DNA of 32,000 bases, from assembly GCA_965219535.1 (NCBI GenBank), contig CBDCNV010000002.1:2190001-2222000 (forward strand), in the 5' to 3' direction. Made by a program: the position numbers and the translations under genes. Origin of the DNA: Opitutales bacterium. GTDB lineage: Bacteria > Verrucomicrobiota > Verrucomicrobiia > Opitutales > PNEW01. The notes beneath the pieces were generated by a model. The model did no database searches, was not told the origin of the DNA, and saw only the letters and a list, made by a program, of their open reading frames with translations. Position 1 is the stretch's first letter, and every line of letters starts with the position of its first letter. Below are positions 1,006-31,776 of the stretch, piece after piece.

Positions 1006-1050
1006 TGTAAAGGATGTCCTGAACCTTTTGTGTAAAGAATGTCTTGAACC
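1006..1050 (-). repeat. Tandem 20-nt direct repeats at the IS481 leader end (possible transposase-binding or terminal repeat)
   Basis: TGTAAAGGATGTCCTGAACC (1006-1025) and TGTAAAGAATGTCTTGAACC (1031-1050) are separated by 5 nt and match at 18 of 20 positions. Confidence 0.5.
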
Positions 1051-1253
1051 TATACCTCAGGGTCAAACGTAGAATTTAAATATACTCTGTAACGGGTCTC
1101 AGTAGTCGATTGATTCATGATGCATGCTGCAGTATTCAGGATGTCATGGGGTAGGGGGTCGGATTGCAGAATGTACGAAACCGACATTCCCCTGGAGTGG
1201 AAGATGTCGCTGCGCTCGGTAGCCACGGCTGACAAGCAGCCTAGCGATGACAA
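1050..1253 (-). pseudogene. Truncated, degenerate copy of the GIY-YIG repeat element (one long arm plus decayed gene relic)
   Basis: The reverse complement from 1253 reads TTGTCATCGCTAGG...GGCTACCGAGCGCAGCGACATCTTCCACTCCAGGGGAATGTCGGTTTCGTAC, which is the same long left-type arm seen in the other copies. The following frame (..SVSYILQSDP...TRYRVYLNSTFD..) weakly recalls the GIY-YIG N-terminus (YVYILTS...TKKY..LVYHESFYD). No second arm is present and the element ends at the IS481 boundary. Confidence 0.5.
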
Positions 1254-1282
1254 GGTATTTCAATCGAAAAACGGCAATCGTA

Positions 1283-2989
1283 TCATTCTATTGTCACTTC
1301 TTCAGTTGTCACCGCGATATCATCCCCATCCTCGTTGGAGAAGGTAGCGTCAATGCTCAGGGTCGGTTGAGGCGTTTCGTCAGACTTGAAATTGTTCTGT
1401 GTGATCAGAGTCTCAAATCCCGGTGTTGTCGATCCACTCTCCGCCACGACGATCGAAGCGCCATTCGTCTGCAACAGGTCTCCACCCGTGATGCGCAAAC
1501 CGGGGTTGCCCGCCGGTACCGTGAAGGACCCGTTTCCGAACAGCAGGTGCGGCACCGCATCGCCGTCGGCGTCGATGTCGCCCACCGTTAATCGTACCGC
1601 GATCGGTACGCCACGCGCATCGAAGCCGACCTTGCCGGTGCTTCCACTGAACACGGCATTCGATAACTGTACCCCTCCCAGGCCCGTGGAGTTGACTACT
1701 TCCACGAGGGCCACATCGGCCTGGGCGTCATAGACCTGTCCTTCGGGGAACAGCGCCTGGTTAAAGGCGTTGATCCTGCCCACCGTGAAAATGCTGAAGA
1801 AGGTATTGGCGTCAGCTCCATCGATGACCACACTCGGCTTGCCCGTCACATACTCAACGGCCTGGTTGTAGCGTGGAGGGACAGCCGGGGGCAGGAAGGT
1901 GGCCGGGTCCAGGGTTACGGTAAAGGTACCGTTACCTGAGAACTCTACCTGCACAATGTCCTCGTTTTCGTCCATGAAGGAAACACGGGTGATCTGTCCC
2001 GGTTTGGCCTGGAGTTGGACGGACTCTCCGGTGAGTAGTATCTGGTCGAAGACGTTGCCGTTGGCATGCTGAATGTCTTCACCCGCGATATCGCCCGAGC
2101 CGTCGAGGACGAGGGGCACTGAAGGTGCTGCTACCGTGACGACGGCCGTATCGCTGTTGGCGCTCCCTCCGGCGTTCGTTACCTGCACCCAGAAATTCGT
2201 GCTCGCGGTGAGTGCACCCGTGGTCAAGGTATTCGACGTAGCTCCGGCGATGGGATGATTAGCAGAGTCGCCGCTATTGCCTTCATACCACTGGTAAGTG
2301 AGATCGTCGCCGCTGGCTTCAACTGACAAAACGACAGCGGTCCCCGACTGCACTTCCTGGTTCGTGGGTTGGGTAGTGATAGAGGGAGCATCCGCGGGTG
2401 GCGGTGCTGAGGTATCAGTGCCCGGTGCGCCAATAGGAGTAAAACCGAAATCATCGAAGACTGTTGCGCTTCTCGCTATATTTACATTGGGATTGTCCTT
2501 AACAATCAGTCTGCCAATGCCGCCTGGAGCTCCCAACTCTACCGTATTGATTGTAGTTTGACGGGGTTTGAATAAAGCATCAAGAGCCCCAGCACTTTCC
2601 AAGTCCGAAAAGGTAGCAAGAAGGTTATCATTAGTATCGTAAACTTCGATTGTTCCGTCGGGGTCAGTAGTGCCAGTCAAAACAATGGCTGCGGCGAAAA
2701 CATCGATCTCAAATGCCGGGGTTTCAAAAGTGACCGTGAAGCTTTCTCCGTTAGCAATCCCATAGGATTGAAGTCCCGATCGCGTTGGATTATTTGCGGC
2801 AGATAAAATCGAGCCCCCAACAAAAGTAGCTCTAATAGGTGATTCCCCAACAATAATGGGTGCCGTTATACCTGCACCCACACTAAAATCCTCAAAAGTA
2901 GTGAATACGGTGTTATTGGACGGTCTTTTCGTTATGGTGAAACCCAGATCGTCAAGGGAGAATTTTCCTGAAACATTTTTGATTGATCG
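1283..2989 (-). pseudogene. C-terminal part of a secreted Ig-like-domain surface protein gene, separated from its 5' end by an IS3 insertion
   Basis: The track ORF is 1283..2881 (532 aa, GVG start), but the frame stays open upstream to the IS3 boundary at 2989. It contains an Ig-like repeat (ITTQPTNQEVQSGTAVVLSVEASGDDLTYQWYEGNSG...FWVQVTNAGGSANSDTAVVTV). It also contains F(T/D)DFE/G motifs shared with the 4282-4521 fragment. Confidence 0.7.
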
Positions 2990-3010
2990 GACCCCGTTTT
3001 TCGTACCAAT

Positions 3011-3934
3011 TTAAGTGAGAGAGTTACCGGGTGTTAATGGTTTTAGGATTGATGTATATGAGAGATCTTGGCGAAGTGAGGGCGTAGCCCGAACGCGGCC
3101 AAGATCGGAAAGGAATCTGACAAACTCTTGTGGGCTTTTGAAGCCTAAACGACTGTGGGGATGTTCATGGTTATAGGTCTGACGCCATTGTTCGATTACC
3201 ACTTGCGCTTCAGCCACGCTGAGTAACACTTCACGGTTCAAACACTCATCGCGTAAGCGGTTGTGAAACGACTCGATGAAACCGTTTTGCCAGGGACTGC
3301 CCGGATCGATATAGATCGCCTTTATGTTATTACCGGACAACCACTGCTGCACTTGATGAGCAATGAACTCACTGCCGTTGTCACTACGGATATAGCTGGG
3401 AGGTCCCTCCTCTTCAATGGCCTCGCTAAGCACAGAGAGGACATCGGTTGAGGTGAGTTGACGAGCGACCCGGATATCCAGGCATTTACGCGTATATTCA
3501 TCGATTAGAGTCATCATCTTTAATGGACCGCCGTTGTCTGTACGATCATGGACAAAGTCCCAGGACCAAACGTGATTGCGACCCTTTGCTTTAGTAGGTG
3601 ACCCCGTAGAGACTCCTTGACGGTGTCTGCCCTTTTTCGGGGGCTTTACCTGCAGCCCTTCTGAACGTCGTACCGCCTGGACAAACTTCCTGCTTGTTGT
3701 CCAGCCTTCCTTTACCAGCAAGGCACGGATGCGCCGGTAACCGTAGCGGGGATGTTTCCAGGACAAGCTCACAATCCGCTCGACCAACCGCTGAGCTTTC
3801 TCACTGGCCTGTTTGGGCCGGTAACTGAACGTTGACCAACTCAGGCTGAGATAAGCACAAGCCCTCCGCAACGAGCACAACCCTTTCTCAGCCGCAGCTT
3901 TTACTACTCGTTTCTTCTGCTTTGGGCTCACCAT
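3011..3934 (-). CDS. IS3-family transposase OrfB (DDE, rve domain)
   Basis: This 307-aa ORF has WSWDFV, IRSDNGSEF and WQNGFIESFHNRLRDE motifs plus the conserved RRACAYLSLSWSTFSYRPK N-terminal segment. Its frame is open upstream of the ATG, as expected for an OrfAB fusion. Confidence 0.9.
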   Translation of the reverse strand: MVSPKQKKRVVKAAAEKGLCSLRRACAYLSLSWSTFSYRPKQASEKAQRLVERIVSLSWKHPRYGYRRIRALLVKEGWTTSRKFVQAVRRSEGLQVKPPKKGRHRQGVSTGSPTKAKGRNHVWSWDFVHDRTDNGGPLKMMTLIDEYTRKCLDIRVARQLTSTDVLSVLSEAIEEEGPPSYIRSDNGSEFIAHQVQQWLSGNNIKAIYIDPGSPWQNGFIESFHNRLRDECLNREVLLSVAEAQVVIEQWRQTYNHEHPHSRLGFKSPQEFVRFLSDLGRVRATPSLRQDLSYTSILKPLTPGNSLT

Positions 3935-3940
3935 TTTTTT
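3934..3940 (-). promoter_or_regulatory. A AAA AAA slippery heptamer for programmed -1 frameshifting (orfA to orfB)
   Basis: The minus strand reads ..GAAACGCTGTCAAAAAAATGGTGA. The orfA-frame tail ends ..LSKKW*, and the -1 frame continues KKMVSPKQKK into OrfB. This layout is standard for IS3. Confidence 0.6.
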
Positions 3941-4008
3941 GACAGCGTTTCCTCCATTACCTGATTCTTGAGCATTTGATCTGCGAGCAGCTTCTTCAGC
4001 TCGGTATG

Positions 4009-4221
4009 TCAGGCCTTCTCGCTTGCGCTCGTGAATTCTTTTTCCAGCTCTTTAAATCGCTTCGCATCGGCAAGTTCTAAATTGCCATATTTTTTACGCC
4101 AGCGATAGAAAGTCTGTTCGCTCAGGTTGTTTCCACGGCAGATTTCCTGTACCGTTTTACCGGTATCGGCTTGCCGCAATATTGTTATAATCTGTTCTGT
4201 TGTGTATCTTTTTCTTTTCAT
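4009..4221 (-). CDS. IS3-family OrfA (HTH), prematurely terminated by an in-frame TGA
   Basis: The 70-aa product reads MKRKRYTTEQIITILRQADTGKTVQEICRGNNLSEQTFYRWRKKYG. A TGA at 4009-4011 is followed in the same frame by HTELKKLLADQMLKNQVMEETLSKKW*, which is the normal leucine-zipper tail that leads into the slippery site. Confidence 0.8.
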   Translation of the reverse strand: MKRKRYTTEQIITILRQADTGKTVQEICRGNNLSEQTFYRWRKKYGNLELADAKRFKELEKEFTSASEKA

Positions 4222-4281
4222 TGAGGTTATCTGTTTATCCCGATAACCTCTCTCTGTAAATGATACGATTTTTGGGGGTCA

Positions 4282-4521
4282 CTCCACGAGGGTTATCGCT
4301 TTGGTTCCCGAGTGTAAGAGCGCTGGATCTTCTAAAGTTTCTACTGTGAAACCGACTAATTTTACCCTGTTTGGCTCTTCCCCAATGAAAAATTCACCTT
4401 CCCCGCTGATATCCTCAAAATCCGTGAATACCTCGAGGTCTTGCGGTAGAGCTGAGAGCAGAAACGGTAAGATTAATGCACTTAACAAGAGCAAAAAAGA
4501 AATGTGATTTCTAAAGTACAT
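4282..4521 (-). pseudogene. N-terminal fragment (signal peptide plus first module) of the IS3-disrupted surface protein gene
   Basis: The fragment reads MYFRNHISFLLLLSALILPFLLSALPQDLEVFTDFEDISGEGEFF..., a signal-peptide-like start. The ORF runs straight into the IS3 end, and its stop (4279-4281) is supplied by the IS terminus. The FTDFED motif recurs as FTTFEDF and VFDDFGF in 1283-2989. Confidence 0.65.
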
Positions 4522-4584
4522 ATAAGATTCCTCAATGAATAAATTAAAGAGAAATCCGTTAGGGTCAAACGGGATTGAACTTTC

Positions 4585-4835
4585 TTGTCATTGCGAGGAG
4601 CAACACGACGAAGCTACCGAGCGCAGCGACATCTTACACTCCAGGTGAATGTCTGTTGTATGAAGTAGGTCCCTTGGTGTTAGGATTAATTCTCAACCGA
4701 TCGTATACTTAATTTTGAGACGAACCCTCATTGGATAGATTTGAGCGGAAATTGGTTTTCGTAGGCATAATGACTATTTGCCTGGAATGGAAGATGTCGC
4801 TGTGCTCGGTAGCCGCGCTTCGCTCGCAATGACAA
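4585..4835 (+). repeat. Miniature copy (251 bp) of the GIY-YIG element: two long inverted arms around a decayed, internally deleted gene relic
   Basis: The left arm is TTGTCATTGCGAGGAGCAACACGACGAAGCTACCGAGCGCAGCGACATCTTACACTCCAGGTGAATGTC. The right arm, read as reverse complement from 4835, is TTGTCATTGCGAGCGAAGCGCGGCTACCGAGCACAGCGACATCTTCCATTCCAGGCAAATAGTCATT. The interior segment 4730-4787 aligns to 24531-24588, the 3' end of the intact gene plus its right arm. Confidence 0.85.
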
Positions 4836-4990
4836 AAGGAATATTACGAAAATTAGTATTATTTATGATATCCGCTAGGAAAAATCGCTTCCTCCCACGA
4901 GTGATAAGGACCCACTCTCGGAAGCGTCTTTTCCACGAAACATATCACGGGATAACATACAAGGGCGAAGCCCGACATCTTCCAAATCAG

Positions 4991-6058
4991 CTACCGAGGC
5001 GAAGCTCGACATCCCTCATTGTCTATCTCCTGCAACTTGAACCGGACACTCACCACAGACTGCTTTTCCGGTCCCGGTCTGTACTTGATATAGGTCGTGG
5101 CTACCAAGGTGTCGTCGGGCAAGAGCTCCAACCCCGGGTATCCACAGTCGTGCGCCTTTTCTTCATCGTAACTGTGCAGTAGTTTGATGCGATACTGACC
5201 CTCCCGACAGTTGCGCAGGTCTTGATACGTACCCACCCAGGCTACAAAATGTCCCCAGGTCGGGCTATTGGCAGTCCTGTCTCGAAAGCAAATGACGAGA
5301 CGACCGTCCGAGGCGTAGCGCGGTTGGTGGCGGTCGCCCGTGATCGTGCGGTTGAGCTCCACGGGGGGAGTCCACGATTCTCCTTCATCATCGCTGAACA
5401 TAGCGAGCGAGCGGCATTTCATGCTGCCGTTAACCCGCAACACACAGGTAATTTCACTCCCCTCGGGTGAGCGTACGAACGCAGGTTCGCACGGCTTTGA
5501 ATCAGGAAATTCCCCGCCGCTCGTGAGAAGCAATCGCTCTGGTCCCCAGGTCAGCCCTCCATTCTCTGAGATGCTCAGAAAAGTTGAGCCATCTCGATTC
5601 CAGGCACCCAACAATCGGTCTTGAGAAATCTCTATAACCGTCGTGAAGGGCATGGTTGTTTTCAGCCCATTTTCTTCGAATGGTGTCCATGTCTGACCCG
5701 CATCTACCGACATGGCTTGACGCATTTTACCCTCGCCCTCAAAAATGAAGAGCCGTTCAACATTGTCCGGTCCAACAAAACGGTAGAGGGCAGGGCAATT
5801 GTTCGCAGTAATCCAGTTCTCCGGGACGGGCAGTGGATCTGTCCATATCATTCCGCCATCGTCACTGCGACAGAGCACAGCAGACGGTCTCCCGTGTCCT
5901 AATGGGTACACACAATAGATTGTCTTTCCATCTGGCATCAAAAGGGTAGTTGGATGTCCCTTGTAACTTTCACTCGTGCCCTGCGCTACTATTACGTGAC
6001 GCCTCGTTTCATGGGAGATATCGATCATAGGAATATTGAAGGGTATAGTTTCCGTCAT
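4991..6058 (-). CDS. BNR/Asp-box repeat protein (sialidase-like beta-propeller glycosidase family)
   Basis: Four Asp-box motifs are present: SDDGGMIWT, SVDAGQTWT, SENGGLTWG and SDDEGESWT. The track ORF starts at a TTG (6094). I prefer the ATG at 6058, which is preceded by GAGAGGAG. No signal peptide is seen. Confidence 0.8.
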   Translation of the reverse strand: MTETIPFNIPMIDISHETRRHVIVAQGTSESYKGHPTTLLMPDGKTIYCVYPLGHGRPSAVLCRSDDGGMIWTDPLPVPENWITANNCPALYRFVGPDNVERLFIFEGEGKMRQAMSVDAGQTWTPFEENGLKTTMPFTTVIEISQDRLLGAWNRDGSTFLSISENGGLTWGPERLLLTSGGEFPDSKPCEPAFVRSPEGSEITCVLRVNGSMKCRSLAMFSDDEGESWTPPVELNRTITGDRHQPRYASDGRLVICFRDRTANSPTWGHFVAWVGTYQDLRNCREGQYRIKLLHSYDEEKAHDCGYPGLELLPDDTLVATTYIKYRPGPEKQSVVSVRFKLQEIDNEGCRASPR

Positions 6059-6183
6059 TTGAATCTCCTCTCTCTTAAACAACTTCGGTTCCAATATTCA
6101 GTCTGCATAATATTGGGGAAAAGAAATTGAACCTTGAATCCGGTTGGGGCTTTCTCAGCATTTCATGCCAGTGGAAATTGCAC

Positions 6184-7020
6184 CTAATTCCCTTTGGGGG
6201 ATTGAGCCACGAGATTGTAATAAACACTTTCGCCGCATTTAAGTTTTAAATAGGGGTAACTTCTCGTAGTACCTGCAAAGAATTCTGCGGCTTTTCTAAA
6301 AGGAGTGGGTACTGTCTCATTGATCTTGCGCATTTTACGTTCATCGTCCTGATGCATCGCAGCCATTACACGATCAGTTATCATCTCCTCACTTTTAATC
6401 GTCATTCCCACCTCATCCAATAATTTCAGTATTATTTCGTAGACTACCTGTTCGATAACATCTGAAACGATAAAATAACCTCCGGGTTTGAGCACGCGCA
6501 TCATTTCATGGATAAAGGCTATTCTATCGGGCAATGCGTGAAAAGATTCGACACTCATAACGACATCGAAACTGTGTTCTTCAAATGGCATCTCAAGCGC
6601 ATTCCCGGTAATAAATTTTAAACCTGGAGCTTGGTAAATTCGATTACAAAAATTTACTCCGTTCCGCGTTAATTCAAGGCCAGTCATTGAATGCGGGTTG
6701 TGGTAGCGATGGACAAAGGAAGCTCCACCGCCACGGCCTGAACCCACTTCGAGAACATCTAAGCCTTGGAGCGTTAATTTAGAAGCTGTATAATGATAAA
6801 GAGAAAGCGCCAGTCGTTCACTTTCTTCTTCTGGTTCGAGGGGGGGTGAATCGGATTCGTTCAATGGAAGGTATCCATAATTAATACACCTCCAATCCGA
6901 ATGCTTCCGGTAGAGAAAATTGAGCATTTCGTAATAAATACGCGTGTAGTATCTCCATTTTCTTATCTTCCGATAACTGCGGACATAAAAGTTATTTCTT
7001 TTTAATTCGAGTTCCGTCAT
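6184..7020 (-). CDS. Class I SAM-dependent methyltransferase
   Basis: This 278-aa ORF has motif I (VLEVGSGRGGGA) and the post-motif VLKPGGYFIVSD. The substrate is unknown. Confidence 0.8.
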   Translation of the reverse strand: MTELELKRNNFYVRSYRKIRKWRYYTRIYYEMLNFLYRKHSDWRCINYGYLPLNESDSPPLEPEEESERLALSLYHYTASKLTLQGLDVLEVGSGRGGGASFVHRYHNPHSMTGLELTRNGVNFCNRIYQAPGLKFITGNALEMPFEEHSFDVVMSVESFHALPDRIAFIHEMMRVLKPGGYFIVSDVIEQVVYEIILKLLDEVGMTIKSEEMITDRVMAAMHQDDERKMRKINETVPTPFRKAAEFFAGTTRSYPYLKLKCGESVYYNLVAQSPKGN

Positions 7021-7478: not shown

Positions 7479-7484
7479 TAGTTT

Positions 7485-8549
7485 TTATTCCTTATCGTAA
7501 TATTCTCTTTTGAATTTTGTTGTTTCTTTTTCAAAAAATCCGTCTTCACCCTTAATAATAAATAGAGCGGCTTTGCTCTCTCTTTCAGCTAGTTGGTATC
7601 CTTCCTCAGGGCCAAGAACAATAAGGGCCGTAGCCAAAGCGTCTGCCCGCATACAGGAGGAGTCAAGCACCGTAACTGAAGCGAGGCGATGCTGGATGGG
7701 ATAACCTGTTCTAGGATTAATTTCATGTGAGTATCGTTTACTATCTTTTTCAAAATAATTTCTATAATCACCAGAAGTGGCAATAGCCCGGTCATTAAGG
7801 TCAATGACCTTATGAATCTCCTTTTTATCTACGATAGGGCTTTCGATAGCAATTCTCCAGGGTGAATTATCTTTTTTTCTACCCCTGGTCTTCATTTCTC
7901 CTCCTATATCGACAATATAGTTCATAATTCCCTGAGTTTCCAGAAGATTTGCAATTGAATCTACAGCAAATCCTTTAGCTATCCCAGATAAATCAACATA
8001 CAGATCAGCGCGATCTTTCTTAAGCGCAGGGGGGGAGAGGCGTGATTTCAAGTGATGGGAACCTACTTTCTTCAAGGATTCATTTATCTTTTCCGCGCTG
8101 GGGATTTCTTCCTTTCCACCTGGAGGGCCAAACCCCCATAAGTTAACCAGGGGGCCAACCGTGATATCGAACGCGCCTTCAGTTAACTGGTGAATCTCAA
8201 TCCCTTCTGCGACAACCATTGCCGTTTCAAATGAAACAGGAAACCAATCGGTCATAGTGTAGTCATTAAAAAGCGACAGTTCAGAGTCCGAAATATAGGT
8301 GGACATTTGGGCATTGATCTCAATAAGGAGTTTATCGATCTCAGTCTTTAATTTCTCTGCCTCAAGGGAGGAGGAGGGAGAGGCGATGGTAACTCGATAA
8401 TAAGTCCCCATCGTAGAACCCGATAGGGTAAGCGGACGATCATCAGTCGCATTCGATGAAGGTTTACTACAGTGAAAGAGGATTAAGCTAGAGAAAACTA
8501 ATATCCCAATCACAAAAAAGGATTTTTTATTAGCTATGATAAAACCCAT
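7485..8549 (-). CDS. apbE: FAD:protein FMN transferase (ApbE family), lipoprotein-like N-terminus
   Basis: This 354-aa ORF has the ApbE motifs GIAKGFAVD and TSGDYRNYF. It has a hydrophobic leader ending ..ILFHC. It is located between nqrF and nqrM. Confidence 0.9.
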   Translation of the reverse strand: MGFIIANKKSFFVIGILVFSSLILFHCSKPSSNATDDRPLTLSGSTMGTYYRVTIASPSSSLEAEKLKTEIDKLLIEINAQMSTYISDSELSLFNDYTMTDWFPVSFETAMVVAEGIEIHQLTEGAFDITVGPLVNLWGFGPPGGKEEIPSAEKINESLKKVGSHHLKSRLSPPALKKDRADLYVDLSGIAKGFAVDSIANLLETQGIMNYIVDIGGEMKTRGRKKDNSPWRIAIESPIVDKKEIHKVIDLNDRAIATSGDYRNYFEKDSKRYSHEINPRTGYPIQHRLASVTVLDSSCMRADALATALIVLGPEEGYQLAERESKAALFIIKGEDGFFEKETTKFKREYYDKE

Positions 8550-8640
8550 CCGTCGAAAGAAAGTTCCCGGTCACTTTTTATTATATACAATATAATGGAT
8601 ATACGCCGAGTTGGGCCATCGGCTCAAATCCTGTAAAGAA

Positions 8641-9879: not shown

Positions 9880-9907
9880 TGTTATTTCGATCCTATTTGC
9901 TAATCAT

Positions 9908-14740: not shown

Positions 14741-15013
14741 TTGTCATTGCGAGGGAGGCTATCAGCTGACCGCGGCTACCGAGTCCCGCAACTACGGGAC
14801 GACATCTTCCATTCTAGGCGAATAGTCATTGTGCTTACTCTTACCAGTCACATGGTAAATCTTTCCAATGAAGGTTCGACTTTTAATCAAAACATTACTC
14901 ATCTGAGGATTAACCTTAACATCTGCGGGTCTACATAACGAAACAGACATCCCCCCGAGTGGAAGATGTCGCTGCGCTCGGTAGCTTCGTCGCTTTACTC
15001 CTCGCAATGACAA
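14741..15013 (-). repeat. Miniature copy (273 bp) of the GIY-YIG element, opposite orientation
   Basis: The termini are AATTGTCATTGCGAGG and CCTCGCAATGACAATT. Both arms carry GCTACCGAG...CGACATCTTCCA. The interior is collinear with copies 4585-4835 and 31538-31776 when reverse-complemented. One arm carries a 16-nt hairpin, TCCCGCAACTACGGGA (14784-14799). Confidence 0.85.
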
Positions 15014-15067
15014 TTGTGACGATGACTATGATAACCGTGATCCACCCTTTTTATATTTTCTCTGGAG

Positions 15068-15087
15068 GGCCACGCTCCGTCGTGGCC
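15068..15087. repeat. GC-rich hairpin GGCCACG-CTCCGT-CGTGGCC
   Basis: A 7-bp perfect stem with a 6-nt loop sits inside AT-rich intergenic DNA. The alternative pairing CTCCGT/ACGGAG overlaps it. Confidence 0.5.
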
Positions 15088-15125
15088 ACGGAGAAGCACG
15101 AAATATAATTTTAAAGTTATTCAGA

Positions 15126-15337
15126 GACGAAGACGAAGAGTGATTCGATTTATCTCTAATTTAAATCTTTTAATGCAAGGTGGAGCGGGCTGTCCCTAGC
15201 ACGCTTCTTCTATTACGACTAAATCAAACGCGCTAGGGATCAGCCGTCGCCAAGGCTATGTCGGACAGACACCGCGTTCCACCCTGATATTGTATTAATT
15301 AACTGACGAAGACACAGACGTGGACGAAGACGAAGAT
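15126..15337. repeat. Composite intergenic repeat: GACGAAGACGAAGA direct repeats flanking a long imperfect inverted repeat
   Basis: GACGAAGACGAAGA occurs at 15126-15139 and 15323-15336, and GACGAAGAC at 15305-15313. Between them, GGTGGAGCGGGCTGTCCCTAGC (15180-15201) is partly complementary to GCGCTAGGGATCAGCCGTCGCC...GGACAGACACCGCGTTCCACC (15231-15284). Confidence 0.5.
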
Positions 15338-17956: not shown

Positions 17957-18835
17957 TTATTCAAGGAAAAAGGGTTGGGTCCATGCATTTCTCTCTCCCT
18001 CACCCCAACACTCAAACCGCAGATAACGGGTGAATTCGGATACATCCACTTTAATCGAACCGCTATCACTCCAGGCTACGCGTTGTCCATTTAGAGTTAT
18101 TCCCACGATTCTGCTGGCATTTTCACATTCGATGACAATTTCGGTTCCTTCCACTTGTATGGTATTAATGACAACGCCGGTAGAACAATAAAAGCGACCA
18201 TTTTGCAATGAACCCAAAATGTTTTCCGGGCTGGATGAATCGACATAAACGACATTCCATCCTACGCCGACATCAACATTTCCCGGCATGAAATGAGCAT
18301 CATCATGGGCATATCCCCATAGGTGACGTCCTTCCGAGAGGAGCATGTCCCATTTGTTTGTAGCGTAAGGGCTGCCAGTGCATCTCCCTACCGTTGCGTT
18401 AAAAATTTCAAGGCCCACATAATCCGTCCATTGCTGCAAAAGTTCGAGTGGACAAAAATTAAAATTATAATCCAGGTTCGGATGGGCAACGACGACGAAA
18501 CCCTGGGTAGATTTTGCTTCATCGAAGACTAACTGTCGGTCGGCATGTGGTTCAATTCGGCGGTCACCATTTACATGCACTAAATGCGGGCCATCCTTTG
18601 AAATTTCATTTCCAGGTAGGAGCACGAGACCTTTATTGTCGATCTTTTCGTAGGTTTCATGTCCGGTGAAAATATCATGATCGGATATTGAGAGAAACTG
18701 GTAACCGAGATTAGCGTAAGTATTAATTACCTCCTGCATCTCGCAGGTGCCATCACTGTTGGTTGTGTGGGTGTGCAAATTTCCTCGAATCCAAGTGCCC
18801 CCTTTTAATTTTTCATAGGGATGTGTTATCTGCAT
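17957..18835 (-). CDS. PHP-domain metal-dependent phosphoesterase family protein
   Basis: This 292-aa ORF has PHP motifs HTHTTNSDG, SISDHD, VAHPN and AHDDAH. Confidence 0.8.
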   Translation of the reverse strand: MQITHPYEKLKGGTWIRGNLHTHTTNSDGTCEMQEVINTYANLGYQFLSISDHDIFTGHETYEKIDNKGLVLLPGNEISKDGPHLVHVNGDRRIEPHADRQLVFDEAKSTQGFVVVAHPNLDYNFNFCPLELLQQWTDYVGLEIFNATVGRCTGSPYATNKWDMLLSEGRHLWGYAHDDAHFMPGNVDVGVGWNVVYVDSSSPENILGSLQNGRFYCSTGVVINTIQVEGTEIVIECENASRIVGITLNGQRVAWSDSGSIKVDVSEFTRYLRFECWGEGERNAWTQPFFLE

Positions 18836-24169: not shown

Positions 24170-24192
24170 AGTGTAATTGCATCGCGCCCCTA

Positions 24193-24621
24193 TTGTCATT
24201 GCGAGGAGCAACGCGACGCGGCAATCCAGAAATTTTGGATTAACCATTGCCACATATAAACCGATTTAATACATGTGCGCAATGTGTATTACGTTTACAT
24301 CCTCACCAGTAAGCGTAATGGAACACTTTACACTGGTGTCACCTGTAGTTTATTTCGTCGCTTATGGGAACATAAAAATAAATTTAAGGAAGGGTTTACC
24401 AAGAAATACAATATACAAAGGCTGGTATATCACGAATCCTTTTATGATATTCAAAATGCTATCGTACGTGAAAAGCAAATTAAAGCCGGATCGAGAAAAA
24501 AGAAGATTGCTTTAATTGAAGCAGAGAACCCCCATTGGAAAGATCTGAGCGGAGACTGGTATTCGTAAAACAATGACGATTCGCCTGGATTGCTTCGTCG
24601 TGATGCTCCTCGCAATGACAA
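24193..24621 (+). mobile_element. Candidate autonomous GIY-YIG element: a single GIY-YIG gene bounded by about 37-bp terminal inverted repeats
   Basis: The left arm at 24193 is TTGTCATTGCGAGGAGCAACGCGACGCGGCAATCCAG. The reverse complement of the right end, from 24621, is TTGTCATTGCGAGGAGCATCACGACGAAGCAATCCAG, matching at 33 of 37 positions. The same termini bound four other repeat copies in the window. Mobility is inferred, not shown. Confidence 0.6.
24275..24568 (+). CDS. Small GIY-YIG nuclease family protein (COG2827 / UPF0213-like)
   Basis: The 97-aa product reads VYYVYILTSKRNGTLYTGVT (GIY...YIG), then RRLWEHK, FTKKY, LVYHESF and REKQIKAGSRKKKIALIEAENPHWKDL. It has a GTG start. The ORF is intact, unlike the relics in the miniature copies. 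Confidence 0.85.
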   Translation: MRNVYYVYILTSKRNGTLYTGVTCSLFRRLWEHKNKFKEGFTKKYNIQRLVYHESFYDIQNAIVREKQIKAGSRKKKIALIEAENPHWKDLSGDWYS

Positions 24622-24646
24622 ATGGGGAGGCACGTGCCCTCCATTA

Positions 24647-25693: not shown

Positions 25694-25701
25694 TTGATTA
25701 T
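25694..25701. repeat. Target-site duplication (left) of the IS1595 element
   Basis: TTGATTAT lies immediately outside the left IR and is identical to 26437-26444. Confidence 0.85.
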
Positions 25702-25710
25702 GGGTCATGC

Positions 25711-25748
25711 CTAGAATAGACACATATCAGATGTGTAAGCTATTCTAG
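25711..25748 (+). promoter_or_regulatory. Hairpin spanning the left IR and transposase leader
   Basis: The sequence is CTAGAATAG-ACACAT-atcag-ATGTGT-aag-CTATTCTAG, giving 9-bp and 6-bp stems. It ends 4 nt before the ATG at 25753. It may occlude translation initiation on read-through transcripts, but that is inference. Confidence 0.4.
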
Positions 25749-25752
25749 ACAA

Positions 25753-26427
25753 ATGAGAAATAAGTATGTACATCGTTCAAAAATTTCTGAGGCCAAATTT
25801 CGGCAGTTAGTAAAGTGTTTTAGCTTGGATATGGAAGCGTTGAAGATAGCCCAATTGACAGGATTGAATCGTAACACGGTCAACCGTTATTTGCGCTTGT
25901 TGCGGGAGCGTTTGTTGCAGCAATGTGCGCAGGCCTCGCCTTTTAGGGGGTCGGTGGAAATGGATGAGTCCTACTTTGGAGGCAAAAGAATTCCAGGGCA
26001 AAGAGGTCGGGGTGCATTCAAGAAAGTGCCCGTCTTCGGGTTGCTCAAGCGTAATGGGAAAGTCTATACCCAGGTTGTACGCAATGTCTCCAGAGCCGCT
26101 CTGCATGCGGTGATCCAAGGGAGAGTTACTTTTGACAGTGTGCTTTATTCTGACGGGTGGCGTGCTTACAACGGCCTCGTGGATCTGGGCTATAAGAAGC
26201 ATTACCGTGTCAATCACAACGACAACGAGTTTGCCCAGGGACACTCCCACATTAACGGGATTGAATCTTTTTGGGCTTTTGCTAAACTTCGATTGGCTAA
26301 GTTCAAAGGTCTTTCTCGTAGGACCTTCCAACTGCACCTCAAAGAAACTGAATATCGCTTTAACCATCGTCATCAAAACCTCCATCGTAACATCCTTAAT
26401 ATGTGCTTAAGATACCCTCTGTTCTAG
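25753..26427 (+). CDS. IS1595-family (ISXO2-like DDE) transposase
   Basis: The 224-aa product has MDESYFGGKR..GRG..KVPVFGLLKRNGKVYT...LYSDGWRAYNGL...HYRVNH...HINGIESFWAFAKLRLAKFKG. Confidence 0.9.
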   Translation: MRNKYVHRSKISEAKFRQLVKCFSLDMEALKIAQLTGLNRNTVNRYLRLLRERLLQQCAQASPFRGSVEMDESYFGGKRIPGQRGRGAFKKVPVFGLLKRNGKVYTQVVRNVSRAALHAVIQGRVTFDSVLYSDGWRAYNGLVDLGYKKHYRVNHNDNEFAQGHSHINGIESFWAFAKLRLAKFKGLSRRTFQLHLKETEYRFNHRHQNLHRNILNMCLRYPLF

Positions 26428-26436
26428 GCATGACCC

Positions 26437-26444
26437 TTGATTAT
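26437..26444. repeat. Target-site duplication (right) of the IS1595 element
   Basis: TTGATTAT lies immediately outside the right IR. Confidence 0.85.
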
Positions 26445-26474
26445 TATACTTAATTAATTGATATTTCAGCATAT

Positions 26475-26951
26475 ATGAAAAAGAGACAAGATTTTGAATC
26501 ACAGGGGTTTACTTTGGTCGAGTTGATGATCGTTGTCGTTATCATCGGTCTCTTAGCCTCATTTGCCATCCCCGCTTTTAATAGAACGAGAGTTGTTTCG
26601 CGAGGAACCGCCTTTCTAAATGATCTACGTGTATTCTCGGATGCGGCAGATACCTATATGATAGAAACTGGAGATTATCTCGAAGATTCAGGCAGTGGTT
26701 CTGTTCCCACGGGTTGGGATGCTTACATTAGCACCGCGAAGTGGACCGGGGCTACGCCAATAGGTGGGGTCTGGGATGTGGAATTGGACTCTTTTGGTAT
26801 AAAATCAGGATTAGGCGTACATGGCCCTGACTTTACCTCTCAGCAGATGCAGGATATTGAAGACAGTTACGATGATGGCGATCTTTCGACGGGGAAATTC
26901 CGGAAAATTGCCGCTGACCGTTACTATTTTATTCTGGAGGACAATCCTTAA
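26475..26951 (+). CDS. Prepilin-type N-terminal cleavage/methylation domain protein (pseudopilin-like)
   Basis: It has the N-terminal motif GFTLVELMIVVVIIGLLA and a C-terminal DDGDLSTGKF motif shared with 29416-29874. Confidence 0.85.
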   Translation: MKKRQDFESQGFTLVELMIVVVIIGLLASFAIPAFNRTRVVSRGTAFLNDLRVFSDAADTYMIETGDYLEDSGSGSVPTGWDAYISTAKWTGATPIGGVWDVELDSFGIKSGLGVHGPDFTSQQMQDIEDSYDDGDLSTGKFRKIAADRYYFILEDNP

Positions 26952-27102
26952 TAGGCTGATCCAACAGGCCTTGGTATAGCTGAAGCGTAACTAAGCTATC
27001 CATATTCTCACTCTTGACGGGTGTGAGATGTCTCTACATACAACAGCTAACTCCATCTTATGGGGAGCAAGTAATGGATTTTAGAGCAATTGGGAAAGAT
27101 AA

Positions 27103-28368
27103 ATGTCATTGAAGAGAGCACCTGAAACCGATTTCGAAAAGGTATCTTCCTATCTGAGGAGACAAGAAGGAAAGTGTGTTAAATTCCTTCAAGGATTAAT
27201 TCAGATTCCAACCGTGAATCCCCCTGGAGACTGCTATAAGCAGTGTGTGTCCTATCTCGATACAAAACTTAAATCGATGGGTATGAAAACCCAGGTCATT
27301 CGTGTCCCAATAAATGAGCAGAAAAAAGTGACACCCCACTTAATGAATTACCCCCGGTATAACTTAATTGGGAGATGGAATACCGGAGCTGCGAAGACAC
27401 TACATTTTAATGCACACTATGATGTGGTTCCTGTCTCGGGTGAATGGAAATATGGACCTTTTGTGCCGAGAGTTAAAGACGAGTGGATTTACGGACGAGG
27501 GACAGCGGACATGAAAGGTGCAATTGCCGCTTGTTGTTTTGCCATTCAAGCGGTGAAGCAATGTAAACAATTACCACGGGTAAATTTAGAAGTGTCTTTC
27601 ACTGCGGATGAAGAAACAGGCGGTGAACTGGGGGCCGGATATATTGTCGAGAAGAAGCTGGTTAATCCCGACTATGCCGTAGTCTGTGAAGGGGGTAGTG
27701 GAAGAACTGTAGGTTGCGGACATAATGGTGTGCTCTGGCTGGAGTCGGTGATTACCGGCAAATCTGCTCACGCCGCGCATCCACATAATGGGATTAACGC
27801 CTTTGAAAAAATGTCGGCTCTGGTAGTCCACTTAAACCGTTGGAAAAAAACTCTGAAAAATCGAAGCTATGTATCACCTAACGGACGTAAAATGCATCCC
27901 ACGATAAATATAGGGGGTGTATTTGATGTCGGATTGGGGGCTAAAGTGAATACCGTTCCATCTCATGCGAGTTTTTCAATCGATAGACGCATTATTCCCA
28001 GCGATTCCTTGCGCGATGGGGAGAGGGAAATAAAAAGAGTGATCAATGAAGCGAGGAGACAAATACCGGATCTGCGTGTAAAAACAGCAAGCCTCTTAGA
28101 AATCAAACCCTGTCTTGTTGATCACAGCAGTTACTTTCCCCAAACATTTTCACGCGTTGTTAGTTCGGTGCTGGGCGGTCGTACTCAATTCAATGTTTGT
28201 GACGGGTTTACCGATATGAATCGCTTTGTGAACAGCAAAATAATAACCGTGGGTTACGGTCCGGGGGGTAAATTAAACCACGGGGTAGATGAGCGGGCAA
28301 AAATTCGCAGCATATTGCAAACAGCCAGGGTATATGCGAAACTGATGCTCTCGCTTGAAGAGAAATAA
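27103..28368 (+). CDS. M20-family metallopeptidase / deacylase (ArgE/DapE-like)
   Basis: This 421-aa ORF has HFNAHYDVVP, GRGTADMKGAIAA and ADEETGG motifs. Confidence 0.85.
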   Translation: MSLKRAPETDFEKVSSYLRRQEGKCVKFLQGLIQIPTVNPPGDCYKQCVSYLDTKLKSMGMKTQVIRVPINEQKKVTPHLMNYPRYNLIGRWNTGAAKTLHFNAHYDVVPVSGEWKYGPFVPRVKDEWIYGRGTADMKGAIAACCFAIQAVKQCKQLPRVNLEVSFTADEETGGELGAGYIVEKKLVNPDYAVVCEGGSGRTVGCGHNGVLWLESVITGKSAHAAHPHNGINAFEKMSALVVHLNRWKKTLKNRSYVSPNGRKMHPTINIGGVFDVGLGAKVNTVPSHASFSIDRRIIPSDSLRDGEREIKRVINEARRQIPDLRVKTASLLEIKPCLVDHSSYFPQTFSRVVSSVLGGRTQFNVCDGFTDMNRFVNSKIITVGYGPGGKLNHGVDERAKIRSILQTARVYAKLMLSLEEK

Positions 28369-28425
28369 TAAATGAAAAGAAGAGTTGAGCGCGGGCGCTT
28401 GTCCGATTAGCTCCGCCTATGAAAT

Positions 28426-29265
28426 TCAATTGCTGAAATCTACGGTCTTCATTAATTCGCGGACATAGCCGTTTGTTACCGAAGCATGGTTATTATCAGC
28501 CGCGTTTATTTCATTTTCGATTGCCTTAAAATCTTCATTGCAGAGTGTATCCAGAGAATCGAGCAAATTATCAAAAGTCTGTTGTATATCAGCTATACTT
28601 GATCCTTCTTGTTGTTGTATGATTTCTCTATAGTAGGATTTTAAATTCAGGCGTGGTATGGTAATTGCATGGTACCGCGTGCCGCGGACGCTGGCACTAT
28701 GTCTCTCCGCAATTGAATTATAAATCTGTTCTTCATCTTGAAGCGCTTCTGCCGCCCTGAAAGCACGATCCATTTCATGCTGAGCGGTATCTGAAAACGT
28801 TTTATTTTTCTGGTCATAATCTGAGGTCATCGTATTGCGGGCGCTTCCGATAAGTCGGCTCAGATTAGCGACTTTGGATTTAACATTATCAAAACTGGAC
28901 TGTATATCTTTATAATTCGCTTTAATGGACTCCGATTCCTGGTACTCCTCATCGGAATCTGATAAAATCATCCCAACTTCCAAATCTATTCGGTCTTTAA
29001 GGTTTTTTGCCTTCGTGATTATTTTCGTTAAAAACCTTTTTTCCTCTCTCAATTGCTTTTTCAGTTCCGCCATCTCTGAATCTTTTCTTTTGCGGGACCC
29101 TAAAAAGCTGAATGTTCGGTCGAGGAAGTTATAGGAATTTTCAATCTCTGTGAGATCGCCGTTTATCTCTTCAAAGAGTTGGACTTGCATCTCTTTCGCC
29201 AGATTAAGCTTATAACGCTCATTGATCAGCGTTTTGACATTATCTGGTACGGTGAGCGTTTCCAT
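28426..29265 (-). CDS. Hypothetical charged, predicted alpha-helical/coiled-coil protein
   Basis: This 279-aa uninterrupted ORF has about 37% GC. It has no transmembrane segment and no motif I recognise. It lies 150 nt downstream of, and co-oriented with, the pseudopilin-like gene 29416-29874. Confidence 0.6.
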   Translation of the reverse strand: METLTVPDNVKTLINERYKLNLAKEMQVQLFEEINGDLTEIENSYNFLDRTFSFLGSRKRKDSEMAELKKQLREEKRFLTKIITKAKNLKDRIDLEVGMILSDSDEEYQESESIKANYKDIQSSFDNVKSKVANLSRLIGSARNTMTSDYDQKNKTFSDTAQHEMDRAFRAAEALQDEEQIYNSIAERHSASVRGTRYHAITIPRLNLKSYYREIIQQQEGSSIADIQQTFDNLLDSLDTLCNEDFKAIENEINAADNNHASVTNGYVRELMKTVDFSN

Positions 29266-29415
29266 TAGTATGAATCTTTAAATGAACCCCTGCACAGAAA
29301 ATTTCGACTGACTGTTATTCTGCGCTTTCCAGCAAAGCTTTATATTTTATAAAATAAACTTAAAAGTGAGGTCAATATTTCTCGTAGCTTAAAATCGTGA
29401 AAAAAGTAGGTTTAC

Positions 29416-29874
29416 TTATTCCAGGGCAAGCTGGTAGTTCATTGCCCCTCTTTTCTGAAAGCGACCTGTAGACAAATCGCCATCATCTATATATTCATCC
29501 ATCTCTATCATGACCGCGAGGTTGGCGTTGGGTTTTTGTAACATTAAAGTCGCTTGGGCTTGCAGCCAAATATACCCACTGCCCTGTCCGCTGCCCATCG
29601 CGTATTTACTCGGCAAATAACCTTCCATTCCAGTGGGAATTTGGTTCAATCCCGCGGTGGGTGGCCATTGGCCATGTTCAGTATTATAGAATTCAAAGGC
29701 ATTGGTGAATTCAACAATATCATTTATCAATACAGTGGATTGAGTTTCTTCGTTGGATTTATTCGTCGCCGGTATTAAAAAAGTTGCGAGAATTCCAATG
29801 ATCACGACAACAACCATGATTTCCACGAGGGTGAAACCTTTTTCCAGGGAGAGACTCTGAGACTTGGCGGTCAT
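29416..29874 (-). CDS. Prepilin-type N-terminal cleavage/methylation domain protein (pseudopilin-like)
   Basis: It has the motifs GFTLVEIMVVVVIIGILA, IPTGMEGYL and DDGDLSTGRF. It is a paralogue of 26475-26951. Confidence 0.85.
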   Translation of the reverse strand: MTAKSQSLSLEKGFTLVEIMVVVVIIGILATFLIPATNKSNEETQSTVLINDIVEFTNAFEFYNTEHGQWPPTAGLNQIPTGMEGYLPSKYAMGSGQGSGYIWLQAQATLMLQKPNANLAVMIEMDEYIDDGDLSTGRFQKRGAMNYQLALE

Positions 29875-30184
29875 TAATAGAAAATATAGAGCTACAAAAT
29901 TATTGGGACGTTACATATTACGCCTAAAAGGATACTTTTCAAGTATGAATCCTCTTCCAATCAAAGTCCCCCCAAAGGGGCGGTGACCGTGTAACGATCG
30001 GGCGCTGTTGAATAATAAATTAACGGGAATGCCGGACCCGTCACTTGTATAATTTCGATTGGCGCTTTTCATTAATTTAAACGGAACCTGAAAAATTTGC
30101 TGCGTATTATGGACACTATTATCTATCAAGGATTTCTCTCAGTTAATATAATATAGATACCGCATTTAATTTATCAAGTTAAAA

Positions 30185-30222
30185 TAGGTAAAAAAACAGT
30201 AAATAATAGGGTTTTAACCCTA
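30185..30222 (-). terminator. Possible intrinsic terminator downstream of the dehydratase gene
   Basis: The minus strand reads TAGGGTT-AA-AACCCTA followed by TTATTTACTGTTTTTTTACC. The stem is short and AT-rich, so this call is weak. Confidence 0.35.
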
Positions 30223-30269
30223 AATGCACTATTTTAGAGAAACTGCTGGAATTTTACCTTAGAATGCCT

Positions 30270-31415
30270 CTACCAGTTGTTCAAAGACCCGTCGCGCCGA
30301 TAAATATGAGGTGCCTCCCAAAATTTAAAGGGTTCTTTGGTGGCGAGATCTTCATTAACATCTATACCCAACCCGGGGCCCTCAGGCACGGGAAATCGGG
30401 CCCCCTCTAATTTGGGTTGTAGGGGAAAGATATCATCATCCTTTGAGGCCTGGTCTTTTGGTAACGCTTGTGCTTCCAGCCAGGCAAAATTGGTTACTGC
30501 CGCCGCCATTTGGATCGTCGCTGCGGTGCAGATGGGGCCCAATGGATCGTGAGGCATGAGTTCGATATAGTGTGCCTCCGCCATGCTTGCTACTTTCATC
30601 GCTTCGGTGAAGCCCCCAACATTGCAGATATCGATACGCGCAAAATTGGTAATGCCCCGTTCGATGTAAGGCAGAAAGTGCCATTTGCTCGATATCTCTT
30701 CACCAATTGCAAAGGGGACATCGGTCATCGTTCGCAGTGATTCATAGGCTTCTGGAGTTTCATCGCGGATGGGTTCCTCCAGAAAATCAATCGTGCCTGA
30801 AGGCATTCGCTGACAAAAAGACGCGGCTTCTGCTACATTCAAACGGTGATGGTAGTCAATGCCGAGAACCGGCTCATTGCCGACAGCTTCTCTCAGCTTG
30901 GTTAACCAGGTAGCGGTTGGAGCAATGGATTCGCGTGGCTCAAAAACTCCATCCTGCTTTGCAGCAAAGCCAGTTCGTATCACATTCCACCCTTTTTCGA
31001 TCAATAAATTTGTATCATCGATCATCTGAGGAGCCGAGTTCATGGGGATCGTTGCAAAGCAGGGAACGAAATCGCGTTGTTTTCCCCCCAGCAGCTGATA
31101 GACAGGGATATTGAGTGCCTTACCAACGATATCATGAAGCGCGATGTCGATTGCTGAAATAGCCGCGCTGAGAACACGGCCGCCCTCAAAGTACTGGCAG
31201 CGGTACATTTCCTGCCACAGAGCACCCCTATGCATAGGGTCTCGGCCGATGAGGAACTCACGGTAATGCTTGACCGCACCTGCGACAGCTAATTCGCGAC
31301 CGGATAGCCCTGATTCTCCCCAACCGTAAATTCCCTCATCAGTTTCAACCTTGACGAGCATTTGGTTGCGTCTTCCCACCCAGACGGGGTAAGGTTTTAT
31401 ATCAGTAATTTTCAT
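30270..31415 (-). CDS. Enolase-superfamily acid-sugar dehydratase (D-galactonate / D-mannonate dehydratase-like, MR/MLE family)
   Basis: The 381-aa product reads MKITDIKPY..VKVETDEGIYGWGE, then IDYHHRL, FLEEP, AIGEE, HDPLGPI and a C-terminal ..DGSLNNW. This resembles the DgoD/ManD subgroup. Confidence 0.85.
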   Translation of the reverse strand: MKITDIKPYPVWVGRRNQMLVKVETDEGIYGWGESGLSGRELAVAGAVKHYREFLIGRDPMHRGALWQEMYRCQYFEGGRVLSAAISAIDIALHDIVGKALNIPVYQLLGGKQRDFVPCFATIPMNSAPQMIDDTNLLIEKGWNVIRTGFAAKQDGVFEPRESIAPTATWLTKLREAVGNEPVLGIDYHHRLNVAEAASFCQRMPSGTIDFLEEPIRDETPEAYESLRTMTDVPFAIGEEISSKWHFLPYIERGITNFARIDICNVGGFTEAMKVASMAEAHYIELMPHDPLGPICTAATIQMAAAVTNFAWLEAQALPKDQASKDDDIFPLQPKLEGARFPVPEGPGLGIDVNEDLATKEPFKFWEAPHIYRRDGSLNNW

Positions 31416-31537
31416 AGGGTTACTTTATTAAATTAATTTAGACGCTAGACTTATGAATTTACAATTCTCGTGGCAAATAGAATCTAAATCGATTGCGGAT
31501 TGTCCCTAATGGTTATCAAATATTCATGTATTTACTT

Positions 31538-31776
31538 TTGTCATTGCGAGCGAAGCGAAGCAACCCAGGGGGATGTCGGTTGCGTAAGTAAAGTCTCAGG
31601 GTGTTAGGGTTTACTCTCACTTGAACGTATGCCTAACTTGAACAGATGAACCATCATGGGAAAGACTTGAGTGGTTCCTTTTATTCGAATGCAAAATGAC
31701 AATTCGCCTGGAATGGAAGATGTCGCTGCGCTCGGTAGCCACGTCTCCCGCTGTTGCGGGATCCTCGCAATGACAA
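31538..31776 (+). repeat. Miniature copy (239 bp) of the GIY-YIG element with one short and one long arm
   Basis: The left arm, TTGTCATTGCGAGCGAAGCGAAGCAACCCAGGGGGATGTC, is the short type found beside the intact gene. The right arm, read as reverse complement from 31776, is TTGTCATTGCGAGGATCCCGCAACAGCGGGAGACGTGGCTACCGAGCGCAGCGACATCTTCCATTCCAGGCGAATTGTCATT. The interior TAACTTGAACAGATGAACCATCATGGGAAAGACTTGAGTGG aligns with TAATTGAAGCAGAGAACCCCCATTGGAAAGATCTGAGCGG of the intact gene. Confidence 0.85.

Follow-up and report, generated by a model that had tools for sequence, protein, structure and literature searches.

Introduction

Ssn proteins (cd10448-type) consist of a single GIY-YIG domain and act as site-specific nucleases on single-stranded DNA; described in 2025, they were the first site-specific single-strand DNases (Chenal 2025, PMC11893778). 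The 94-aa SsnA of Neisseria binds a 28-nt hairpin repeat, NTS, whose core is dRS3, and cuts a few nucleotides upstream; its experimentally shown function there is the modulation of transformation (PMC11893778). NTS-like repeats lie on both sides of the gene in 42% of homologues, and the authors likened NTS-ssnA-NTS to an insertion sequence (IS), a comparison left untested in that work, as were left open the questions of why ssn genes have their own target repeats around them and how these repeats multiply (PMC11893778). Here we analyse a 32,000-nt stretch of an Opitutales genome (assembly GCA_965219535.1, contig CBDCNV010000002.1, positions 2,190,001 to 2,222,000; hereafter the window), which carries one intact small GIY-YIG (Ssn-type) gene unit together with three gene-less miniature units (minis m1, m2 and m3) that have the same ends.

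Related kinds of repeat families have been recognised in bacteria. Miniature inverted-repeat transposable elements (MITEs) are derived from insertion sequences by internal deletion, as in the Correia elements and the IS-derived MITEs of ISfinder. Repetitive extragenic palindromes (REPs) and their doublets, REPINs, are said to go with RAYT transposases, which are IS200/IS605-like Y1 enzymes, a picture credited to Nunvar in 2010, Bertels and Rainey in 2011 and Ton-Hoang in 2012. The Neisseria intergenic mosaic elements (NIMEs) reportedly consist of repeat units framed by dRS3, an observation ascribed to Parkhill in 2000; to our knowledge, the internal NIME units have not been linked to ssnA. Literature searches that combined GIY-YIG with MITE, terminal inverted repeats or COG2827 returned nothing relevant, and a further search yielded the Ssn paper alone.

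Results

The nuclease gene and its arms resemble the Ssn/NTS system

The full-length unit encodes a 97-aa protein whose sole Pfam match is PF01541 (residues 5-77, E 5.5e-11); exactly this protein is also recorded in NCBI and ENA assemblies. As a proxy for N. meningitidis SsnA we used the gonococcal orthologue, a 94-aa open reading frame (ORF) that is the single homologue in N. gonorrhoeae, has canonical NTS on both sides and fits the published description of SsnA (PMC11893778). The two proteins are 48% identical by BLASTP (E 4e-29) and 47.7% by tblastn (E 5e-19); with the gonococcal orthologue as stand-in, the 97-aa protein thus lies within the published homology threshold of tblastn E < 1e-10 (PMC11893778). 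Its length and its single GIY-YIG domain also fall within the Ssn family range (about 94-100 aa), and its match to the UPF0213 structure 1zg2 is weak (E 3.8e-5). The gonococcal ssnA locus was supplied by NZ_CP119140.1 (L036) and NZ_CP119142.1, 2.17 Mb N. gonorrhoeae chromosomes that are filed as plasmids.

Inverted arms of the form TGTCATTGC...GCAATCCAG lie on both sides of the gene, each with GTCATT as its 5' box and AATCYRG as its 3' box, and the two arms (24187-24229 and 24585-24627) are 86% complementary. The arms have both boxes, GTCATT and AATCCAG, in common with NTS (CGTCATTCCCGCGMAVGCGGGAATCYRG; PMC11893778). Between the boxes the two differ: NTS has an 8-bp stem and a 4-nt loop, whereas the core here is longer and is not a simple stem-loop, being a modular region of 18-50 nt with swappable hairpins and an optional block of about 24 nt. 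The likeness includes the single-domain protein of about 94-97 aa, the repeats with GTCATT and AATCYRG on both of its sides and the many gene-less intergenic copies. A cyanobacterial homologue (61% identity) is surrounded by inverted doublets of about 115 bp that end TGTCATTCTGAG...GGATGACA. Judged from their sequences, we conclude that the gene and its arms belong to the published system of Ssn nucleases and NTS-like repeats.

One set of ends bounds full-length and miniature units

The 11-mer GTCATTGCGAG is present, without mismatch, at all eight termini of the four bounded elements in the window, where 0.53 occurrences were expected and 0 of 100 shuffles reached 8. More generally, the same inverted termini, TTGTCATTGCGAG ... 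CTCGCAATGACAA, bound all units of the family. The intervals of the three minis contain no gene and span 239-273 bp. As single-stranded DNA, whole units fold far beyond shuffled controls (z -3.4 to -7.9), with values of -7.5 for the full unit and -7.9 for m1; Rfam and tRNA scans of the window gave no match. Beyond the eight paired arms there is a ninth, unpaired one, at a place (1050-1245) where the first-pass annotation, made from the letters of the window alone, had counted a fifth family copy. This copy reduces to a reverse solo left-type arm, as its nhmmer match is limited to profile positions 2-78 and it has no interior homology.

The mini interiors combine the end of the gene with an orphan segment

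The same annotation had described m1, m2 and m3 as collinear, with one common architecture, stops in the relic gene frame and near-constant spacing, and these features hold. The distance from GTTARG to CATKGG is 50, 50 and 52 nt from start to start, which equals the 56, 56 and 58 nt given earlier once the second hexamer is counted. The deletion junction is also common, in that the right-hand junction to the gene falls in all copies at about codon 77-78 (..ATTGCTTTAATTGAAG). From there, homology continues through ENPHWKDLSGDWYS, the stop codon and the 3' untranslated region (UTR) into the right arm. The gene-derived part thus amounts to about 64 nt, from codon ~77 to the stop plus the 3'UTR, and includes the last ~20 codons of the gene; its local alignment scores against the gene 3' end (69, 52 and 46) compare with null maxima of 26, 24 and 25.

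The claimed interior homology therefore stands for the 3' part and fails for the 5' part, which had been aligned with the gene start (RNVYYV) and with two further patches, SK and TGVT. The 5' interiors, aligned to the 5'UTR together with the initial two-thirds of the gene, scored no better than shuffles (pairwise p 0.56, 0.28 and 0.14), and profile searches were equally empty. Columns 1-48 of a five-mini profile had no match in three full elements, which the profile matched by its last 18 columns only, that is, by the 3' homology; extended over the inner arm end, the profile had no match on either strand, even at E <= 1000. The description of the minis as products of an internal deletion in which the gene start and two patches survive is not supported, as derivation from the gene can be demonstrated for the last ~20 codons and the 3'UTR only. 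Because neither shuffles nor profiles yielded a source, we call the 5' interior of 47-49 nt the orphan; it is absent from all seven full-length elements examined. Pairwise tests for its derivation from the gene-derived 3' interior by inversion were not significant (p 0.16-0.87). A consensus fold does pair the orphan with the gene remnant at 84-90% of cells, but this evidence is weak, coming from five sequences with a structure derived from the same data and with few compensatory changes. The inner ends of the arms had been called polar. They do differ consistently within the minis, but they read as imperfect inverted copies of each other (CCAGGGGAATGTCTGTT vs CCAGGCGAATAGTCATT). Identity between the interiors of the three window copies is 60-68%, lower than the 70-80% estimated by eye.

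The mini architecture has a single origin

We scanned species-representative genomes with the arm block of about 24 nt and obtained 30 loci, 28 of them from two metagenome-assembled genomes (MAGs) of Opitutales (Verrucomicrobiota), one from a Puniceicoccaceae MAG and one a chance match in a Gemmatimonadales gene (L026). A corresponding scan of metagenomes gave 18 loci with neither an orphan match nor an ssn homologue, and so added no minis; at least seven of the loci inspected are unrelated sequences with a 21-mer in common by chance. When termini were paired in every locus gathered, 39 distinct bounded elements resulted. These, a sample biased to arms that carry the extension block, comprise 21 arms-only (micro) units of 100-171 bp, nine elements of 221-271 bp, two of 332-340 bp and seven gene-carrying elements of 427-462 bp, one of which is frameshifted.

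The mini architecture of the window recurs in OY829953.1 (L029) and CBDANS01 (L016), at loci unrelated to the window sites. Orphan and gene junction are thus common to at least five unrelated loci in three genomes, in an order that runs from the left arm and inner end GGGGAATGTCTGTTG through the orphan and the end of the gene (from codon ~77) to inner end CAATGACTATTCGCCTGG and the right arm. The two elements of 332-340 bp (L018 and L017) have interior ends like those of the minis and different inserts of about 100 nt at the centre. Neither the orphan nor the mini-type left inner end occurs in any of the seven full-length elements, in which the left arm runs directly into a conserved 5'UTR, CCAGAAAT.TTG.ATTAACC.... 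An independent deletion is seen in L020 (254 bp), which retains a 5'UTR of the full type with the first ~8 codons, continues at the HW codons and so has a different junction.

The interiors are 60-77% identical, and identity among the window copies is no higher than between them and copies from other genomes; the mini lineage is therefore old. Since the flanks are unrelated and the architecture is common, segmental duplication is ruled out, and parallel decay in situ is very unlikely. This sequence comparison indicates that the mini architecture arose once and was then copied, as a non-autonomous unit, to unrelated intergenic sites in several Opitutales genomes. The earlier proposal of a single progenitor that multiplied as a non-autonomous unit is thereby supported.

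Units are gained, remodelled and duplicated between relatives

Syntenic loci of related genomes were gathered through orthologues of a flanking aminotransferase, and a tree of flanking proteins gave the relationship ((window, L062), (L035, L063), L032). The m2 site is empty in the closest relative, L062, whose neighbouring proteins are ~96% identical to those of the window and whose flanks align at 97.9% and 92.0% nucleotide identity. It is also empty in L063 and L032, and m2 is therefore a gain in the window lineage.

Other sites show units that have changed in place. At the m3 site, L062 has an orthologous mini of 228 bp that is 92.5% identical and carries a different right-arm hairpin module; L035 has an arms-only unit of 171 bp, and L032 has nothing. 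An arms-only unit just outside the window differs from its L062 orthologue only by the precise presence or absence of the 27-nt block and of a 13-nt piece, in flanks that are ~99% identical by inspection of the alignment. The full-element site is filled in the window, L063 and L062 and empty in L035 and L032. The exact empty site could not be placed, as the intergenic DNA of L032 and L035 is too diverged; one flank is common to L035 and L043. The L062 full unit is inverted, and the same GCCCC(T/A)A adjoins whichever terminus faces the aminotransferase. The nuclease proteins of the window and L062 share 85% identity, compared with 96% for neighbouring genes, so that either the copies are non-orthologous or the gene evolves fast.

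Two full units lie 3.3 kb apart in opposite orientation in L038/L063 and differ at 8 of 464 positions, five of which are clustered in one arm core. Their flanks are unrelated, and identity ends at TTGTCATT and, at the opposite end, no more than a few bases from AATGACAA; the site of the second L038 copy could not be aligned to the window. Activity of the family, which had been judged not recent, looks recent in the light of the m2 gain, at a site empty in the closest relative and two further ones, and of this near-identical pair.

Arms are modular and their termini have a common context

Arms of the window units differ in composition. The ~24-nt block is present in mini arms, with the exception of the m3 left arm, and the arms of the window full element are without it; the m2 right arm contains an extra hairpin module, TCCCGTAGTTGCGGGA. 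The modules are interchangeable and include an optional block of ~24-27 nt (TACCGAGCGCAGCGACATCTTCC), the centre of which is itself replaced by small hairpins. Hairpins of the form TCCCGC-N4-GCGGGA occur at varying arm positions, and window examples of arm modules lie at 4615-4637, 14784-14799 and 31736-31755; a further example is L001 18844-18959 set against L062. The extension block is also found alone in other contexts (L015, L051 and L058).

A conserved context lies outside the termini of the 39 distinct bounded elements: 75 of their 78 ends have T at position -1, pyrimidines prevail between -7 and -4, and hardly any G occurs in the stretch from -7 to -1. One end of several full units abuts (A)ATGC(C/A)CC(T/A)(T/A/C), whatever the direction of the gene (L038 3872-3885 vs 8014-8027; window 24183-24192; L043 4348-4360). 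This sequence could be a preferred target or a few additional bases of the unit.

Genomic surroundings in the window

Positions of the units and their parts are collected in Table 1. As had been noted before, all copies are intergenic. The gene pairs around the units are an IS3-type transposase and a BNR-repeat gene, nqrA and a 428-aa gene, an aminotransferase and PhyH, and an enolase-superfamily gene and a methyltransferase.

Table 1. Location and composition of the Ssn-type units and their parts in the window.
Feature	Position	Strand	Description
Full-length unit	24193..24621	+	Inverted NTS-like arms framing the intact 97-aa GIY-YIG gene
Left arm of full unit	24193..24229	+	TTGTCATTGCGAGGAGCAACGCGACGCGGCAATCCAG; GTCATT box, variable core, AATCCAG box
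ssn-like ORF	24275..24568	+	GTG start, 97 aa, single GIY-YIG domain
3'UTR, right inner end and right arm of full unit	24569..24621	+	Right inner end ACAATGACGATTCGCCTGG; right arm 24585-24621
Mini m1	4585..4835	+	Left arm 4585-4657, orphan 4658-4704, gene-derived 4705-4768, right arm 4769-4835
Mini m2	14741..15013	-	Left arm 15013-14942, orphan 14941-14895, gene-derived 14894-14831, right arm 14830-14741
Mini m3	31538..31776	+	Left arm 31538-31581, orphan 31582-31630, gene-derived 31631-31694, right arm 31695-31776
Solo left-type arm	1179..1252	-	TGTCATCGCTAGG...CCAGGGGAATGTCGGTT; no partner arm, no mini interior
Terminal 11-mer, inward-facing pairs	4587/4833, 14743/15011, 24195/24619, 31540/31774		Window-wide

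Transposase genes and further repeats also lie in the window. An IS3-family transposase gene (rve, HTH_21; ORF 3011-3934, minus strand; element 2990-4570) belongs to an element that ends 16 nt from the left terminus of m1. The end motif of this element, AGGGTCAAACG, occurs again at 1059 (window ~1-1075), about 110 nt from the solo arm, and an IS3-type element interrupts a full ssn copy in L039 (7821-8294). The IS3-type element may thus be an insertion sequence that targets these palindromes; IS1397 is said to target REPs. An IS1595-family transposase gene at 25753-26427 is framed by 24-nt terminal inverted repeats (25697-25720 and 26418-26441), and the same place in L062 and L032 is without this element.

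A second, unrelated family of palindromic repeats of ~110 bp (GGTGGAGCGGGCTGTCCCTAGCACGC ... GCGCTAGGGA...CGCGTTCCACC) is represented at 15179-15290 and often adjoins Ssn units; further copies lie in L001 (~18760-18830), L038 (3640-3770 and 4385-4480) and L043 (3780-3900), and OY829953.1 has a copy that matches one of the others at 89% identity. A short GC-rich intergenic hairpin repeat, GGAGGGCCACGCTCCGTCGTGGCC, is found at 15064-15090 in the window, at 3775-3800 and 4480-4510 in L038 and at ~11395 in L032. It forms part of a longer inverted pair in L062, the left half of which is missing in the window, directly beside m2.

Discussion

The window contains gene-less repeats together with a nuclease gene unit that has the same ends. 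What the first-pass annotation had observed is largely real, and its idea that a non-autonomous derivative spread was right in spirit; its anatomy of the minis and its timing of activity were wrong, and it missed the link to Ssn and NTS, the abundant arms-only forms and the module-wise remodelling of arms. With a protein and arm boxes homologous to those of a known nuclease system, minis of single origin, sites that are filled or empty between relatives and a duplication bounded by the termini, we consider it probable, at roughly 60%, that the minis are a MITE- or REPIN-like derivative family of an Ssn element, spread by the nuclease through the common ends.

The route that we infer for this spread would begin with Ssn protein made from full units, which would recognise the common ends of full, mini and micro units in trans while the DNA is single-stranded. 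The GTCATT boxes face outward, and cuts are therefore predicted at the outer edges of a unit: nicks would fall just outside each end, one on each strand, with the cut only on the strand that reads TGTCATTGCGAG. Because a hydrolytic GIY-YIG nuclease cannot itself join strands, host replication or repair would have to complete the copying or loss. The long inverted arms would in addition invite recombination, and therefore inversion, turnover of the centre and swapping of modules, and the arms-only forms (100-171 bp) would be the counterparts of REPINs that they resemble.

Several observations weigh against nuclease-driven spread. GIY-YIG enzymes are hydrolases, and we know of no strand-transfer chemistry among them. 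The GTCATT boxes, outward here as suits a discrete unit, face inward beside gonococcal ssnA, and the published SRM pattern, HGTCWYN(0-2)YYVSBRHN(0-5)WNVSBRGN(0-2)RNCYNB, has 0 matches on both strands of the window. Individual arms are not supported as stable hairpins (z -1 to +1). The m2 junction is unclean, with ~31 nt beside the window element in place of ~53 different nt in L062. Direct repeats are missing from the flanks of all copies, and comparison of filled and empty m2 sites revealed no target-site duplication; together with the untidy junction, this makes insertion inseparable from local recombination. Identity of m2 to the other minis seen is only 60-67%, so that no donor copy is among them. 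Finally, all comparison genomes are metagenome assemblies, in which repeats are prone to misassembly.

Some of these points would be expected if the repeats were REP-like clusters, of the kind of bacterial interspersed mosaic elements (BIMEs) or NIMEs, spread by homologous recombination, gene conversion and DNA uptake with no transposition encoded by the element. Ssn would then be a domesticated host factor, for instance one that restricts incoming single-stranded DNA as proposed for Neisseria, and the minis a recombinant that caught the 3' end of the gene. The untidy m2 junction, with no target duplication, agrees with this, as do the precise arm modules by which orthologous copies differ (the 27-nt block, the 13-nt piece and the m3 hairpin compared with L062), the m3 site that holds a mini in one relative and a 171-bp micro unit in another, the inverted L062 unit, as expected from recombining inverted arms, and the transformation phenotype shown by experiment in Neisseria. 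We nevertheless regard this explanation, the main rival, as unlikely. Two full units that are 98.3% identical lie in unrelated flanks with identity ending at the termini, as for a discrete unit that duplicates; a G-free pyrimidine tract is conserved outside nearly every terminus; and the same mini architecture occupies non-orthologous loci in three genomes.

Selection or decay could also be invoked for the constancy of the minis. Were they kept for a host function as DNA or RNA structures, for instance by terminating transcription, stabilising mRNA or binding proteins, the constancy of their lengths and blocks would reflect selection and not descent alone, and lengths and block order are indeed kept at only 60-77% identity, in units that fold strongly as a whole and whose consensus fold pairs most orphan and remnant cells. 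Against this, the neighbouring genes are tandem, divergent and convergent with no consistent orientation, the pairing rests on five sequences and a structure taken from the same data with few compensatory changes, Rfam has no match, and relatives do without the element at orthologous sites; we think such a role improbable. Decay of full elements in place at each mini site, with the junction repeated through a deletion hotspot, seems hardly credible. Independent deletion derivatives do arise (L020), and a long palindrome should be unstable at its centre, as the different ~100-nt centre inserts of L018 and L017 illustrate, but the 47-49 nt orphan is in all core minis and in none of the seven full elements, the mini left inner end is missing from full elements as well, and three relatives have an empty m2 site rather than a full-length element there.

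Compared with REPINs and their RAYT transposases, the Opitutales family likewise has a nuclease gene flanked by inverted short hairpin repeats, an intergenic distribution and a presumed recognition of single-stranded DNA, and 21 of its 39 elements are arms-only doublets that form long hairpins. It differs in that the enzyme is a hydrolytic GIY-YIG nuclease, not an HUH tyrosine transposase with a covalent intermediate, that some genomes have more than one copy of the nuclease gene (two in L038) and that one lineage keeps a piece of the gene. The minis are like MITEs in being small and non-coding, in sharing ends with a gene-carrying partner of the same genome (8/8 termini over 11 nt, with arms that align), in occupying unrelated intergenic sites and in their presence or absence between relatives. 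They are unlike MITEs in the missing target-site duplication, in long, composite and rapidly remodelled arms, in a partner gene that is no recognised transposase, and in keeping only the 3' end of the gene next to an orphan for which neither strand of the partner offers a detectable source. With NIMEs they have in common short variable units framed by inverted copies of an Ssn-bound repeat and clustered between genes, whereas the units here are discrete palindromes and not tandem mosaics.

For Ssn systems, a lineage with a gene remnant, modular long arms and comparative evidence for mobility are new; gene-piece derivatives, recent duplication of a whole unit and insertion polymorphism are not in the published account (PMC11893778). 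For annotators, the published repeat pattern misses long modular variants such as these. To the question of how the framing repeats multiply, the Opitutales family brings comparative evidence for the framed unit as a discrete duplicating entity with non-autonomous offspring, and this has three supports: the lineage that carries a piece of the gene, the gain of m2 since the split from the sister genome, and the near-identical full pair that ends at the termini. We tentatively suggest, at somewhat less than even odds, that repeat-ssn-repeat units constitute an unrecognised IS-like class of prokaryotes, whose sole protein would be a hydrolytic GIY-YIG nuclease for single strands and not a DDE, HUH, serine or tyrosine recombinase, and which would move by cuts at its outer edges in single-stranded DNA followed by host copying, with MITE- and REPIN-like progeny. 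With a defined protein and defined ends, the IS-like hypothesis is now directly testable. If true, such a class would account for where the NTS/SRM repeats seen across bacteria come from.

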